Source: an uncultured bacterium (GTDB taxonomy: Bacteria > Patescibacteriota > Gracilibacteria > UBA1369 > PNNO01). Taken from it: a DNA stretch of 32,000 nt. The notes beneath the pieces were generated by a model, which saw nothing but the letters and a program-made list of their open reading frames with translations, did no database searches and had not been told where the DNA came from. Positions 19,511-24,531 of this stretch are shown piece by piece. The DNA lies in the NCBI GenBank assembly GCA_963704705.1, contig OY969931.1, positions 690,001-722,000 on the forward strand. The letters are read 5' to 3'. How positions within the stretch are numbered: position 1 is the first letter of the stretch; every line of letters starts with the position of its first letter. The position numbers and the translations under genes are program-made.

Positions 19511-20710
19511 ATGATAAATACTGATGATAAGCTAATTAATGCTACTTTAAGCAGGGGAGTTGTTGATGTAATACAAAAAGAAGAATTAGTTAAAAAACTC
19601 AAATCCGGCAAACAATTAAGAATCAAATTAGGAATTGATCCATCAGGAGCTGACTTACATATTGGTCACATGGTTGTTTTAAAGAAACTCAAAGAATTTC
19701 AGGATCTGGGACATCAAATAATATTACTTTTTGGTAATTTTACTGGGCAGATAGGTGATCCAACAGGAAAAATGGAAACAAGAAAAACCAAAACCAAAGA
19801 ACAATTAGAGAAAAATGCAAAAAAGTACATAAAACAAGCAAGTTTCTTTTTAGATGTTGATAAAATTGAAGTCAGATGGAATGCTGACTGGCTTGAAAAA
19901 CTCAATTTTGCTGATGTTGTTCAACTTGCATCAACATTTACTGTTTCTCAAATGATGGAAAGGGATATGTTTCAGGAACGTCATGCAAAAAATATGCCAA
20001 TTTTTGTTCACGAATTCTTTTATCCTTTAATGCAAGGTTATGATTCTGTTGCTTTGGAGGCCGACTTGGAACTTGGCGGGACTGACCAGACTTTTAATAT
20101 GCTTGCCGGACGAACAATCCAAAAAGCTTACGGAAAACCTCAACAAGATATATTAACTGTACCGATTCTTGAAGGAACAGATGGAGTTAAGAAAATGGGA
20201 AAATCCGAAGATAATTACATTGCTGTTGATGATGAACCAAAGGAAATGTTTGGAAAAGTAATGAGTATTCCAGATGAATTGATTGTTAAATACTTTGAAC
20301 TTGCCACAAATGTAACTTTAGACGAAATCAAAATAATAGAAAAAGCAATTAGAGGTGGTGAAAATCCAATGATTTACAAAAAACAGGTTGCAAAAGAAAT
20401 TATTAAAATTTATCACGATGCTGATGCTGCTGAAATGGCAGAAGAGCAATTTACAAAAGTATTTAGCGAAAATAAACTTCCAGATGATATTGAAATAAGG
20501 AAAATTAATGCAGATTCAATTAATATTATTGAAATGATGGCATCTAACGATTTAGCATCATCAAAAAGTGAAGCAAGACGGCTAATAGAACAGGGCGCAG
20601 TAAAAATAAATGAAGAAAAAGTCAGTGATGTTGAAATGCAGATTGATCTTAAAAATGAAACTTTAATTCAGGTTGGAAAACGCAAGTTTTTAAAAGTTGT
20701 TAAAGGCTAG
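19511..20710 (+). CDS. tyrS: Tyrosyl-tRNA synthetase
   Basis: 399 aa. Has the HIGH-type motif (DLHIGHMVV), KMSKS as KMGKS, and a C-terminal S4 domain (SKSEARRLIEQGAVKINEEKV). Confidence 0.95.
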   Translation: MINTDDKLINATLSRGVVDVIQKEELVKKLKSGKQLRIKLGIDPSGADLHIGHMVVLKKLKEFQDLGHQIILLFGNFTGQIGDPTGKMETRKTKTKEQLEKNAKKYIKQASFFLDVDKIEVRWNADWLEKLNFADVVQLASTFTVSQMMERDMFQERHAKNMPIFVHEFFYPLMQGYDSVALEADLELGGTDQTFNMLAGRTIQKAYGKPQQDILTVPILEGTDGVKKMGKSEDNYIAVDDEPKEMFGKVMSIPDELIVKYFELATNVTLDEIKIIEKAIRGGENPMIYKKQVAKEIIKIYHDADAAEMAEEQFTKVFSENKLPDDIEIRKINADSINIIEMMASNDLASSKSEARRLIEQGAVKINEEKVSDVEMQIDLKNETLIQVGKRKFLKVVKG

Positions 20711-20723
20711 AATAATTGTTTTT

Positions 20724-22763
20724 ATGCTACAAACACCTCTTAAGGATGTCTTAAGAACCACAACCAGGCATTTAAATAAACTTAAAGATTTGGGTTTGAG
20801 AACCGCTGAAGATTTATTTAAGTATTTTCCGCGGACATACAATGATATGAGTGAAACAACCAAAATTGTTGATTTGCGAACCGATGAAGTAAATGTTGTA
20901 AAAGGCACAATCTCAAATTTGTTTATGCAGCGTACTAAGCACGGTAAATATCTAACAAAAGCTATTTTAACCGATGATACAGGAGCAATTGAGGTAGTTT
21001 GGTTTAACCAGCCGCATATAAAAAGAATGATTGCAAACGGCAGCCAAGTTGTTTTAACAGGCAAATTAAAATATGCATTCGGCAAAATGACTCTGCAAAG
21101 CCCTCAAATGGAAATGCAAAAAGAAGAGCTTATTCACAGCGAACGGATCGTGCCTGTTTATCATGAGACTGAAGGTATTTCATCCAAATGGCTTCGTGAA
21201 AAAATAAAACCTTTGGTTGATGACTGGAGCAGCCATTTTAAAGAATATATGCCAATGGATATTATTGCTGAAAACGGTTATTTGACTTATAACAAGGCAA
21301 TTAAAAATATCCACTTTCCGGAAAATGAAGAAATGTTAAATTTGGCCCGTGAACGCCTGGCATTTGATGAGCTTTTTTTGTTGCAACTTAAAGCATTGCA
21401 AAAAAAATGGTATTGGCAGCAGATTGCTTCGGAAGAACAAAAACAAATTCCTCAAAACATAGAATTGATTCGGGAATTTTTAAGCAAACTGCCTTTTGAA
21501 CTTACAAATGCACAGAAAAAAGTTTTATATGAGATTTTGCAGGATCTTGAAAAGCCTTACCCAATGAGCCGCTTGGTTCAGGGAGATGTTGGTTCAGGAA
21601 AAACTATTGTTGCAGCAGCGGCAATATTGAACACCGTAAAAGCAGGCTTTCAATGCGCTTTAATGGCACCAACCGAAATATTGGCAAAACAGCATTACTT
21701 AAGCATTAATAAAGATTTAAAACCTTATGCTTTAAATATTCAATTTGTGTCCGGCAGTACAACGGATAAAAAGAAAAAAGAAATCATTTCGCAAATGAAA
21801 TCAGGTACTGTTGATATAGTTATTGGAACTCATGCATTAATTCAAGAAGGTATCGGATTTAAAAAGCTCGGTTTAGCAATTATTGATGAGCAGCACAGAT
21901 TTGGTGTTAAGCAACGAAGTATTCTTAAAAGTTTCGGAAGCCCGCATTTGTTAAGTCTTTCTGCAACACCTATCCCGCGAACATTGGCTATGACAATTTA
22001 TGGAGATCAGGATTTATCAATCATTGATGAAATGCCGAAAGGAAGGCAAGAAATAATAACCAGACTAATTCCCGAGAAAAAACGTATTGATGCTTACAGA
22101 TGGATTGAAGACCAGGTTCGTAAAGGCCGTCAGGTGTTTGTTATCTGCCCCCTAATCGATGAATCTGACACACTTGGAGTTAAGTCGGTTAAAAATGAGT
22201 ACTTGCATTTAAGCGAACATATCTTCCCTGAATTTAAAATCGGATTATTGCATGGAAAGCTGAAATCAACTGAAAAAGAAGAAATAATGAATGCCTTTGA
22301 TGCCAATGAAATAAATATTTTGGTATCAACTTCTGTTGTTGAAGTTGGAATTGACGTTCCAAACGCTACAATCATGATGATTGAAGGCTCAGAACGCTTC
22401 GGCCTTTCACAATTACACCAGTTTAGGGGGCGTGTGGGTAGAGGAGAGCACCAATCATACTGTTTCTTGTTCACAAATTCGGAATCTCAGGAAACAAGAC
22501 AGCGATTAAATGCAATGGTTCTTCATTCATCTGGATTCAAACTAGCTGAAATCGACATGAATTTGCGCGGAGTGGGGGAGATATACGGTGTGAAACAAAG
22601 CGGAATACCTGACTTAAAAATGGCTAATCTTTCTGACAGCAAAACAATTGAAAAAGCCCGTAATGAAGCAATAAAAATAATTGAAAAAGATCCGATGCTA
22701 AACCAATATCCAAAATTAAACGAAAAAATTTCTGAATTTGAAGATGTGTATGTGAAGGATTAA
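20724..22763 (+). CDS. recG: ATP-dependent DNA helicase RecG
   Basis: Has a wedge domain, GDVGSGKT, DEQHRFGV and QLHQFRGRVGRG. The track ORF begins at a TTG (20697) inside tyrS. The ATG at 20724 (MLQTPLKDV...) fits the usual RecG N-terminus better. Confidence 0.9.
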   Translation: MLQTPLKDVLRTTTRHLNKLKDLGLRTAEDLFKYFPRTYNDMSETTKIVDLRTDEVNVVKGTISNLFMQRTKHGKYLTKAILTDDTGAIEVVWFNQPHIKRMIANGSQVVLTGKLKYAFGKMTLQSPQMEMQKEELIHSERIVPVYHETEGISSKWLREKIKPLVDDWSSHFKEYMPMDIIAENGYLTYNKAIKNIHFPENEEMLNLARERLAFDELFLLQLKALQKKWYWQQIASEEQKQIPQNIELIREFLSKLPFELTNAQKKVLYEILQDLEKPYPMSRLVQGDVGSGKTIVAAAAILNTVKAGFQCALMAPTEILAKQHYLSINKDLKPYALNIQFVSGSTTDKKKKEIISQMKSGTVDIVIGTHALIQEGIGFKKLGLAIIDEQHRFGVKQRSILKSFGSPHLLSLSATPIPRTLAMTIYGDQDLSIIDEMPKGRQEIITRLIPEKKRIDAYRWIEDQVRKGRQVFVICPLIDESDTLGVKSVKNEYLHLSEHIFPEFKIGLLHGKLKSTEKEEIMNAFDANEINILVSTSVVEVGIDVPNATIMMIEGSERFGLSQLHQFRGRVGRGEHQSYCFLFTNSESQETRQRLNAMVLHSSGFKLAEIDMNLRGVGEIYGVKQSGIPDLKMANLSDSKTIEKARNEAIKIIEKDPMLNQYPKLNEKISEFEDVYVKD

Positions 22764-24085
22764 TGAAATCTCACAGTTAGAACTCCTCCAACATTAAATC
22801 CAAGTTTGTCGGGTTTACTTCTTGCAGATTCTTTTCTTTCTGATACTGATCCATACAAATCCAAATCTATGTTATTACCCAAAGGTACTGAAAAACCTAG
22901 ATTTATATTTCGTTCCTTTGGACCATTTTTGATTTCGGTTTGGCTAACCCCTGCTCTTAACATAGAAACTTTACCTTTTCCAAAAAGATTAGGTAGTTTT
23001 AAAATTGCATTTAAATTATACATTTTAACATTTCTAATAAATAAACCTGGCTCAGCTTCATAATTCGGCGAATATCCATATAAGAATTCAAGAGTTAAGT
23101 GCGGATTATTAAAACCTTTTGGAATAATATTTGAATCAATTTTTATTACTCTCAAGCCTTTATTACTAATACCGGCTCTAACTGAAAATAATTGACCATA
23201 ATCTTTAACTTCATATTTATAATCTGCTCCAGTAAAAGCTTCAATTTCGTACCCTGTACGCTTAATTTGCATTATCCCATCTGCGAGTTTAGTAGAATTT
23301 AAACTTAATAATGTTCCGAGTTTTAGTTTCCCGTTTAGTAATTGAAAAACAGACATTATTTGCGCACTATCTAAATTCATTTCATTGTTAATCATAAATC
23401 CAGGTGCGTTTCGTATACTTTCTTGCAATTTTTCTATACTATTTTCTAAATTCTCAATTTCTTTTGAAAAACTAGCATTTTTCTGAGTTAACTCAATTAT
23501 TTTAAAATTCAGTTTTTTTATCTTTTGGTTAATTACTACTATATTTTTTTGTGCATCTGGATTATCTCTTTTATTAGATAACTTTAGTATTTCTTTTTTT
23601 AATTTAATTTTTTCTTCAACTAATTTTTGTTTTGTTTTCTCTAATTCATCGTCTTTTAATTCATCTAACTTATCATTTAACTTTTTTATTTTCAATTCTA
23701 TACTTGATAAATCTTTAAGTGCTAAAATTATCTTTTGGTTTACAGTGTTAAATTCTCGTTGGTCAATTTTTTGCCTTAAATGGTTTGAACGATTTCTGAA
23801 TTTTTTAATTTTATTAATCATTTCTACTATAGCAAGATTAAATGCTTGTAATTGTTTTCTGGACCCCATTACGTCATGAATTTGATTAACAGCTGTAAGT
23901 TGAGCTTCTTTCATTGGAGATGGATTACCTCTCATTGCAAGCATGTCTACGTTTCTTTTTTTAAATTTATGAACTGCAGTAGCAGAAACTTTTGTTTCTT
24001 TTTTAGCAGGTTTATCTTTAATGCTTTCAGGAGATACAGGCATTTTAAAAACCAAAAATCTTTCAGTAAAAAATGAATCATGCAT
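22760..24085 (-). CDS. Hypothetical protein: basic N-terminus, about 130-aa Lys/Glu/Ile/Leu coiled coil, C-terminal domain of about 200 aa made of amphipathic beta strands
   Basis: 441 aa with no signal peptide or TM helix. The heptad-like part is KIKKLNDKLDELKDDELEKTKQKLVEEKIKLKKEILKL...IENLENSIEKLQESI. The C-terminal strands alternate in polarity: YEIEAFTGADYKYEVKDY, QLFSVRAGIS, HLTLEFLYGYS, NINLGFSVPL, IDLDLYGSVS, and the protein ends LGFNVGGVLTVRFH. Confidence 0.6.
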   Translation of the reverse strand: MHDSFFTERFLVFKMPVSPESIKDKPAKKETKVSATAVHKFKKRNVDMLAMRGNPSPMKEAQLTAVNQIHDVMGSRKQLQAFNLAIVEMINKIKKFRNRSNHLRQKIDQREFNTVNQKIILALKDLSSIELKIKKLNDKLDELKDDELEKTKQKLVEEKIKLKKEILKLSNKRDNPDAQKNIVVINQKIKKLNFKIIELTQKNASFSKEIENLENSIEKLQESIRNAPGFMINNEMNLDSAQIMSVFQLLNGKLKLGTLLSLNSTKLADGIMQIKRTGYEIEAFTGADYKYEVKDYGQLFSVRAGISNKGLRVIKIDSNIIPKGFNNPHLTLEFLYGYSPNYEAEPGLFIRNVKMYNLNAILKLPNLFGKGKVSMLRAGVSQTEIKNGPKERNINLGFSVPLGNNIDLDLYGSVSERKESARSKPDKLGFNVGGVLTVRFH

Positions 24086-24413
24086 TATCCAGCTTTTTTA
24101 ATAAATTTTCAATTTTTTTTGAATTATTTTCTTTTTCAGCTTTCTTTTTTCTTTTTAATTTTTCAGATTCTTCTTCTCCTTCTATTTTTTTATTATATAT
24201 GTTAAAAACTTGCGCAAGTAAACCAGTTATTAAATCTTGTTCAATCAAGTGATTCCTCTTTTCAATTTCTGCATTTGTAAAAATATATGCTAATTCAGTC
24301 ATTTCTTTTTTATTCATATACATCATCTCGCTCAAAATTTCATTTTTTTGAGTTTTTGTTAAATAATTCGCATTAATTACAATTTTCAATAATTGTTCAA
24401 CTGTGATTTGCAT
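24078..24413 (-). CDS. Hypothetical small helical protein, translationally coupled to the 441-aa gene
   Basis: 111 aa from the ATG at 24413; the track ORF starts at a TTG at 24443. The C-terminus is Lys/Glu-rich. Its stop overlaps the downstream ATG (ATGCATGA at 24085-24078). Confidence 0.5.
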   Translation of the reverse strand: MQITVEQLLKIVINANYLTKTQKNEILSEMMYMNKKEMTELAYIFTNAEIEKRNHLIEQDLITGLLAQVFNIYNKKIEGEEESEKLKRKKKAEKENNSKKIENLLKKLDNA

Positions 24414-24478
24414 AAATATAATTATATTTAATTTATAGCACAAATATGCCTAGAAATCAATCACGTCCAGGTGTAAAT

Positions 24479-24506
24479 TTGACTTATATAGCTATTCGAA
24501 TATATT
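24479..24506 (+). promoter_or_regulatory. Sigma-70-like promoter TTGACT-16-TATATT
   Basis: ttgact at 24479-24484 and tatatt at 24501-24506, 26 nt upstream of the ATG at 24532. Confidence 0.4.
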
Positions 24507-24531
24507 TATATCTGGTAATTAACTTCAACTT

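Follow-up and report, generated by a model that had tools for sequence, protein, structure and literature searches.

The window analysed in this work is a 32,000-nucleotide (nt) stretch of the single-contig genome G000 (G000:C1:690001-722000), and coordinates without a prefix are positions within it. Between recG and a broken aminotransferase gene, the window carries a two-gene cassette encoding a small helical protein of 111 amino acids (aa) and a partner protein of 441 aa. Comparison with other genomes showed that this cassette represents, in a strain-specific copy, a two-gene module found throughout the order Peribacterales, and that the cassette falls in the class with short, beta-type partners that start with a conserved N-terminal box (N-box). 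The same comparisons showed the module to be a helical protein of about 110 aa coupled to a larger and very fast-evolving partner. As to function, we tentatively favour a reading in which the small protein escorts a partner that is exported independently of the Sec pathway, and in which a coiled-coil stalk and an amphipathic beta-domain of the partner would act at a membrane or surface. The near-universal, multi-copy small family, the N-box and the strain-specific insertion go beyond the original prediction, an earlier reading of this DNA.

The small gene family and its variable partners

The small protein has an N-terminal motif Y-L-[ST]-x-x-[EQ]-K and a C-terminal end of the L-L-K-K-L-D-N-A type. 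As a single query it gave weak full-length matches to open reading frames (ORFs) of about 110 aa in other genomes, each followed by a larger gene, and the best independent match (E 2.6e-6 over aa 3-110) was to a 111-aa ORF of another genome. A profile of six sequences (A3) matched 201 of the 205 genomes of the order, with 2-5 copies each; the window protein is one of the six, and its own match of E 6e-38 is therefore circular. Outside the order, at E <= 1e-5, the profile matched 5 of about 11 genomes of the same class and 6 of about 280 other Patescibacteria. The original prediction had assigned neither protein to a characterised family, which held in that no Pfam, NCBIfam or PDB match was obtained, but with this distribution the small protein is no orphan. 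Searches of 46 family members individually against Pfam, and of the family profile against PDB sequences, gave scattered chance matches only. DUF5663 was considered as the identity of the family and rejected, as the only DUF5663 protein of the genome (G000 591145-591516) was not matched by the small-family profile.

Among the 37 distinct short members sampled of this 'escort' family, 32 were followed on the same strand by a partner of at least 100 aa, which started -35 to +25 nt from the stop codon; at least two of the five members without a partner lay at contig ends. The overlap of -8 nt observed in the window recurred, being present in four of the 32 pairs (the window's own and three modules from other genomes). 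The same domain of about 100 aa also ends conserved proteins of 140-310 aa with Pro/Gln-rich N-termini, which are fused, single-copy forms. In G000, a conserved 186-aa protein ending in the escort domain is convergent on a sortase-like gene (G000:C1:450246-451658; TLITC, by eye), and in a distant genome an escort-domain protein and a sortase-like gene stand in tandem (L165:2874-4475).

The partner proteins have lengths of 259 to 1844 aa, and BLAST detected no relationship between most of them. A box resembling F-x-E-N-R-L-V-F was present at the extreme N-terminus (first ~20 residues) of 13 of the 32 sampled partners, including the 441-aa protein, which shares 8 of its first 13 residues with the 357-aa partner in G075, a genome of a different family of Peribacterales. 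A second class consists of giants of about 1680 aa that start with M-P-F-[DQG]-[QE]-A-K. In the small-protein tree, the members before giants grouped together with good support (2 changes, compared with 7.3 in shuffles; reached by 0/500), a grouping that is confounded with taxonomy. The members before short beta-type partners, drawn from four families, clustered with weak support (76/80). All-against-all BLAST of 13 partners linked two sub-groups, neither of them with the 441-aa protein. The 12 complete partners of at most 460 aa, selected by length alone, ended in Phe in four cases (background 6.5%, P = 0.006) and showed Phe or Trp in the last two residues in six (P = 0.003).

Four modules are present in genome G000: the window cassette, a module between fusA and tuf, and two with partners of 1654 and 1462 aa. 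The fusA-tuf module (G000:C1:1124450-1125458; L129:4451-5459) encodes a 262-aa partner that ends in V-V-G-G-V-S-A-R-F and ranks first in the proteome for period-2 amphipathicity (z 5.6). This partner gave a sub-threshold Porin_4 match (E 0.0055) to the same part of the profile as P0002, the homologue of the 441-aa protein described below; hhalign of the beta-domain of the 441-aa protein against it resulted in a probability of 0.2%. Of 11 family relatives, 8 have fusA directly beside tuf, and two same-genus relatives have only short unrelated ORFs (68 and 85 aa) between the two genes, so the fusA-tuf module is a second strain-specific insertion. Tandem genes of 139 and 263 aa with F-S-E-N-R-L-V-[FY] starts were also seen between rpsJ and rplC (G000:C1:1130934-1132137), with no escort gene preceding them.

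The locus, its homologue and its patchy distribution

The cassette and its flanks comprise the following features:

22760..24085, minus strand: gene of the 441-aa partner protein; no signal peptide, no transmembrane (TM) helix, isoelectric point (pI) 9.8; one homologue (P0002)
24081..24413, minus strand, with stop codon 24078-24080: gene of the small helical protein, 111 aa, a member of the Peribacterales 'escort' family
24078..24085, minus strand: start/stop overlap ATGCATGA of 8 nt, read in the sequence
24047..24073, minus strand: N-terminal box FFTERFLVF, aa 5-13 of the 441-aa protein, the local version of F-x-E-N-R-L-V-F
23411..23917, minus strand: probable coiled-coil stalk, a helical region rich in Lys, Glu, Leu and Ile (aa 57-225), from AlphaFold2 helices and coiled-coil-type hidden Markov model (HMM) matches
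22763..23404, minus strand: C-terminal beta-rich domain (C-domain), aa 228-441, beginning at PGFM, from the alignment with P0002
22760..22763, no strand: recG and the 441-aa gene converge here, with stop codons that share 4 nt; a similar junction is found at the locus of the metagenomic homologue
24414..24531, no strand: intergenic region from which the small gene and the broken aminotransferase gene diverge, with promoter-like hexamers at chance level

The two ORFs are real and AT-rich, and they lie between recG and the broken aminotransferase gene with the 8-nt overlap, as originally described. The overlap indicates translational coupling of the small and the 441-aa gene. The small gene, listed as an ORF at 24078-24443 (minus strand), was reassigned to the start ATG 24413 by family alignment. 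For the 441-aa gene, ATG 24085 is supported as the start because of the N-box and the recurrent -8 overlap in other modules; the alternative ATG 24043 (P0002 begins M-P) was dropped on the same grounds. The cassette showed a GC content of 28% and a GC content at third codon positions (GC3) of 16%. The latter falls in the 1st-2nd percentile of the genome, whose 688 long ORFs have a mean GC3 of 27 +/- 9%. The adjoining aminotransferase is split into parts of 172 and 288 aa, and is intact (~445 aa) in same-genus genomes. The divergent intergenic region held 11 promoter-like hexamers against 11.5 expected from shuffles, i.e. no excess. Direct and inverted repeats flanking the cassette were AT-rich chance matches only, and no mobility genes (integrase, transposase) were seen beside it.

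When the C-domain was searched exhaustively with phmmer against 1.84 billion representative proteins, one true relative was obtained, P0002, a metagenomic protein of 332 aa with 35% identity over 211 residues (E 2e-27); one repeat-protein artefact scored besides it. Conservation between the two begins at PGFM (aa 228) and is carried by Gly, Pro, and aromatic columns. P0002 lies on metagenomic contigs of 2.0-2.4 kb and, like the 441-aa protein, has no signal peptide. The terminal part of a homologue of the small protein lies upstream of it (identity at 19 of 25 residues), and downstream lies a convergent recG, 82% identical to the window recG, with the stop codons overlapping again. As P0002 follows a small-gene homologue and converges on recG, the small gene and the 441-aa gene are co-conserved, which settles a check proposed with the original prediction. 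At the P0002 locus (L002:60-100), about 135 nt are missing that in the window correspond to the charged tail of the small protein and the N-box of the partner; the gap resembles a deletion.

When the whole protein, the C-domain, or a two-sequence profile served as the query, word-indexed homologue searches returned only the protein itself and P0002. The 441-aa protein gave no match in 40 relative genomes, and the C-domain profile gave only chance-level fragments in the 205 genomes of the order. No new relatives were obtained when the pair alignment was searched against GTDB genome contigs, JGI metagenomes, and IMG/VR, and tblastn against GenBank phages found no relative of the cassette.

In three same-genus genomes, recG is directly followed by the intact aminotransferase gene, with no cassette, and in other genera of the family pabB follows recG. 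The recG tree placed the P0002 contig beside genome G006, whose recG is 86% identical at the DNA level to that of the contig. This similarity ends exactly at the stop codon, and close relatives therefore differ in the presence of the cassette. From these genome comparisons, the cassette is a patchy, strain-specific accessory insertion. In G006, the stretch of about 720 nt behind recG (L012:780-1500) has no long ORFs, contains a GC-rich hairpin, and may hold an RNA or a decayed gene. G003, one of the three same-genus genomes, holds an unrelated 107-aa minus-strand ORF at the recG/aminotransferase junction (L006:1782-2102), so this junction is a variable spot.

The 441-aa protein and the envelope of its host

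The lack of a signal peptide, stated in the original prediction, was borne out. Just four codons are open upstream of the 441-aa frame (445 codons in total), so there is no extended start. The maximum 19-residue Kyte-Doolittle hydropathy was 0.96 (at aa 243), and the N-terminus showed no hydrophobic core. From the open codons and the hydropathy, the protein has neither a signal peptide nor a TM helix.

Other parts of that description stood with changes. For the Lys/Glu/Leu/Ile heptad coiled coil, AlphaFold2 modelled long helices at aa 57-225, the sole part of the full-length model with a predicted local distance difference test score (pLDDT) of 55-72, and the alpha moment of the region was z 1.8, but the heptad signal was weak (z 1.55). 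Pfam, NCBIfam, PADLOC, and PHROGs gave only coiled-coil-type noise (e.g. SMC, DivIC) at aa 67-236, and no match in the C-domain. In the beta region (aa 243-441), about 12-13 amphipathic segments with short Gly/Asn/Pro turns were counted by eye, and the C-domain contains 10% Gly and 9% aromatic residues. The polar/non-polar alternation had been called strict, which was overstated: the period-2 hydrophobic moment showed z = 1.8, matched by 17 of 500 shuffles and ranking 25th among 688 genome proteins. For P0002 the corresponding value was z = 2.3. The C-terminus, ...VGGVLTVRFH, ends in a last strand like that of outer-membrane proteins (OMPs), but Phe is penultimate in it, and the same holds for P0002 (V-R-F-H and L-R-F-D, respectively).

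The C-domain matched no Pfam family even at E <= 10, and a PDB profile search gave a chance match only. No SLH domain was matched in Pfam at E <= 1, and no YadA-type anchor was found; the beta-domain has about 200 aa, compared with about 70 for the YadA type. Across SLH, YadA-anchor, porin, and OMP_b-brl profiles, no match of the 441-aa protein was above threshold. The Porin_4 match of P0002 was sub-threshold (E 0.018, 15.3 bits against a cut-off of 27). AlphaFold2 had been proposed as a means to decide between a beta-barrel and a soluble sandwich. With a 2-sequence alignment, it gave a mean pLDDT of 39.9 for the full-length protein and 32.0 for the C-domain alone, whose strands were modelled at low confidence.

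The host genome (1.37 Mb, 35.5% GC, 99.4% complete) is that of a member of the Peregrinibacteria/Peribacteria in the Candidate Phyla Radiation (CPR), which is ultra-small and has a single membrane. All relatives of the window recG are labelled Peregrinibacteria, Peribacteria, or Patescibacteria. Omp85/BamA (PF01103) is absent from this genome, whereas the control genomes respond; LpxC and secretin were not found, and a sortase-like gene is present (TLITC motif read by eye). The genome is thus monoderm-like, as had been supposed. Peribacteria have been described with sortase, S-layer, and peptidoglycan (PMC4736985), and the gene content of the host agrees with this. Two VirB4-like (AAA_10) genes were found at G000:C1:855260-856063 and 1038892-1039035. 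Genes similar to type IV secretion system (T4SS) coupling proteins, three clear and one weak, occur at G000:C1:497708-498640, 644663-645730, 668653-669681, and 736652-736942. A monoderm-type T4SS has been described as widespread in Patescibacteria (PMC12102498). Of the type VII secretion system (T7SS) markers, LXG (PF04740) and WXG100 (PF06013) were absent from the genome, and PF10140 reached only 16 bits, below its cut-off.

Function, alternatives and known systems

In the escort-and-export reading that we tentatively favour, the small protein would bind the partner in the cytoplasm as an escort or adaptor, with the N-terminal box or its vicinity as the probable contact site. The partner, carrying no Sec signal, would exit the cytoplasm by a Sec-independent route; the VirB4-like and coupling-protein-like genes of the genome offer a possible one. 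Its coiled coil may oligomerise into a stalk, and the beta-domain of about 200 residues with its OMP-like last strand might then engage a membrane or surface, either of its own envelope or of the host cell's. The co-conserved pair, the module-wide coupling, the N-box, and the clustering of small proteins by partner type are in favour of this, together with the patchy presence, the low GC3, the lack of a signal peptide and TM helix, and the OMP-like features (terminal strand, C-terminal Phe, Porin_4).

Several points weigh on the other side. Binding, export, and membrane insertion of the pair are steps that we infer from sequence features. No module adjoins T4SS genes, and the VirB4-like and coupling-protein-like genes are unlinked to the cassette. 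P0002 is without the N-box, and its small protein is without the tail. The alternation of the 441-aa beta-domain is moderate (z 1.8), and the pLDDT of both AlphaFold2 models is low (39.9 and 32.0), so a soluble fold is compatible with the protein. As the beta-domains of the partners show no detectable homology, their likeness could be due to convergence or composition.

The strongest alternative is a structural or regulatory complex confined to the cytoplasm, in which the coiled coil would serve as a scaffold, the beta-domain would be a soluble sandwich or a closed soluble barrel, and the small protein would be a regulatory or assembly subunit, with no export. It fits a protein without signal peptide or TM helix in a genome without barrel-insertion machinery. 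The alternation is moderate, and an exposed/buried pattern is just as characteristic of soluble sheets. The basic pI would be compatible with binding to nucleic acids or to a membrane surface, and other modules lie inside ribosomal and translation-factor operons. We consider this complex somewhat less likely than the escort-and-export reading, as the fast turnover (35% identity compared with 82% for recG), the patchy presence, and the polymorphic C-termini behind a conserved N-box are more typical of surface or conflict proteins, and C-terminal Phe is enriched among the short partners.

A selfish or conflict cassette at intergenic hot spots, such as a toxin-antitoxin system, an anti-phage module, or a phage-derived moron, appears improbable. 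The insertions are strain-specific and lie between conserved genes at two sites, a different small gene occupies the recG/aminotransferase junction in one same-genus genome, and both the atypically low GC3 and the two-gene architecture would suit such a cassette. However, PADLOC and PHROGs yielded coiled-coil noise only, no relatives were found in IMG/VR or GenBank phages, and no flanking repeats, integrase, or transposase were seen. The small family is also near-universal and multi-copy and has fused, conserved single-copy forms, unlike a sporadic mobile toxin system.

It is very improbable that the two genes are non-functional ORFs decaying in a degenerating region beside a pseudogene. The adjoining aminotransferase is frameshifted, the composition is AT-drifted, and the homologous locus lost about 135 nt across the tail of the small protein and the N-box of the partner; but open frames of 441 and 332 codons were kept in two lineages, Gly, Pro, and aromatic columns are conserved over 210 residues at 35% identity (E 2e-27), and the coupling overlap and N-box are intact in the host genome. 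An ordinary diderm OMP with a mis-called start (OmpM/Slp-like tether, autotransporter, or porin), for which the coiled coil followed by a beta-domain and the aromatic residue near the C-terminus would speak, is effectively refuted by the four open codons upstream and the equally signal-less P0002, by the lack of SLH, YadA-anchor, porin, or OMP_b-brl matches at threshold, by the absence of BamA, LpxC, and secretin from a 99.4%-complete single-contig genome, and by the sortase, S-layer, and peptidoglycan described for Peribacteria (PMC4736985).

A bolder extension of the escort-and-export reading is a long shot. The module may be an undescribed polymorphic delivery system, in which a universal escort would read the N-box of diverse cargos and direct them to a Sec-independent route, e.g. 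a monoderm-type T4SS. One cargo class, including the 441-aa protein and the fusA-tuf partner, would then be self-contained OMP-like barrels on coiled-coil stalks. These might sit in the outer membrane of a Gram-negative host, perhaps placed there via their last strand by the beta-barrel assembly machinery (BAM) of that host, and serve the epibiont as a conduit for nutrients or lipids.

CPR/Patescibacteria are believed to be attached to other cells in life, and they are unable to synthesise lipids and many building blocks; to our knowledge, little has been established about the ways in which they gain access to their hosts. What looked like an isolated orphan pair is now an order-wide module, recognisable by its small family, its coupled hypervariable partner, and the shared N-box, which can be catalogued and tested. 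If the partners are exported, the module would represent a targeting code of a new kind. Were the beta-domains membrane barrels, they would deepen the puzzle of how OMP-type proteins are used by a cell that has one membrane and no BAM.

No described family or system accommodates the pair, which by itself demonstrates no new mechanism. In the LXG toxin and Lap systems of the Firmicutes T7SS, one or two helical proteins of about 100 aa are encoded directly upstream of a signal-less protein. In LXG proteins, the N-terminal targeting region is conserved and the C-terminal domain polymorphic; a genome contains multiple divergent copies. The module resembles them in its small upstream helical gene, signal-less partner, conserved N-terminus, variable C-terminus, and several copies. 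It differs in that the host genome has no LXG domain, WXG100, or YukC/EssB above cut-off, the N-terminal box has just about 9 residues, and the C-termini are beta-rich or giant, with no recognisable toxins. Immunity genes were not noticed in these loci, as far as they were examined and with no search aimed at such genes. Chaperone-effector pairs of type III, IV, and VI secretion (VirE1-VirE2, Eag-Rhs) are alike in the adjacent small escort gene, the Sec-independent cargo, and the rapid cargo evolution, whereas the cassette has no sequence relationship with them and no linkage to secretion genes, and no known type of secretion signal was identified in it.

OmpM/Slp tethers and FapF-like proteins show the same order of parts as the 441-aa protein, i.e. 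an N-terminal region, a coiled coil, an amphipathic beta-domain, and an aromatic residue near the C-terminus. The 441-aa protein differs from them in having no signal peptide or SLH domain, a domain of just about 200 residues, and no HMM match at threshold, and in a host without BAM or lipopolysaccharide (LPS) genes. Compared with trimeric autotransporter adhesins, it lacks the YadA-type 4-strand anchor and the signal peptide. With small OMP barrels (OMP_b-brl PF13505, Porin_4 PF13609) it shares amphipathic hairpins rich in Gly and aromatic residues, as well as a last strand with the pattern G-x-x-hydrophobic-x-hydrophobic-x-R-F, but it gave no match to them at E <= 10, its Phe is penultimate, it has no signal peptide, and its host has no BAM. 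Elsewhere in the genome, a sub-threshold OMP_b-brl (PF13505) match of 20.8 bits was observed at G000:C1:912274-912582 (L105), inside a frame of 1854 codons, and OMP-like C-termini were seen at genome positions 599668-600861 and 19767-20378.

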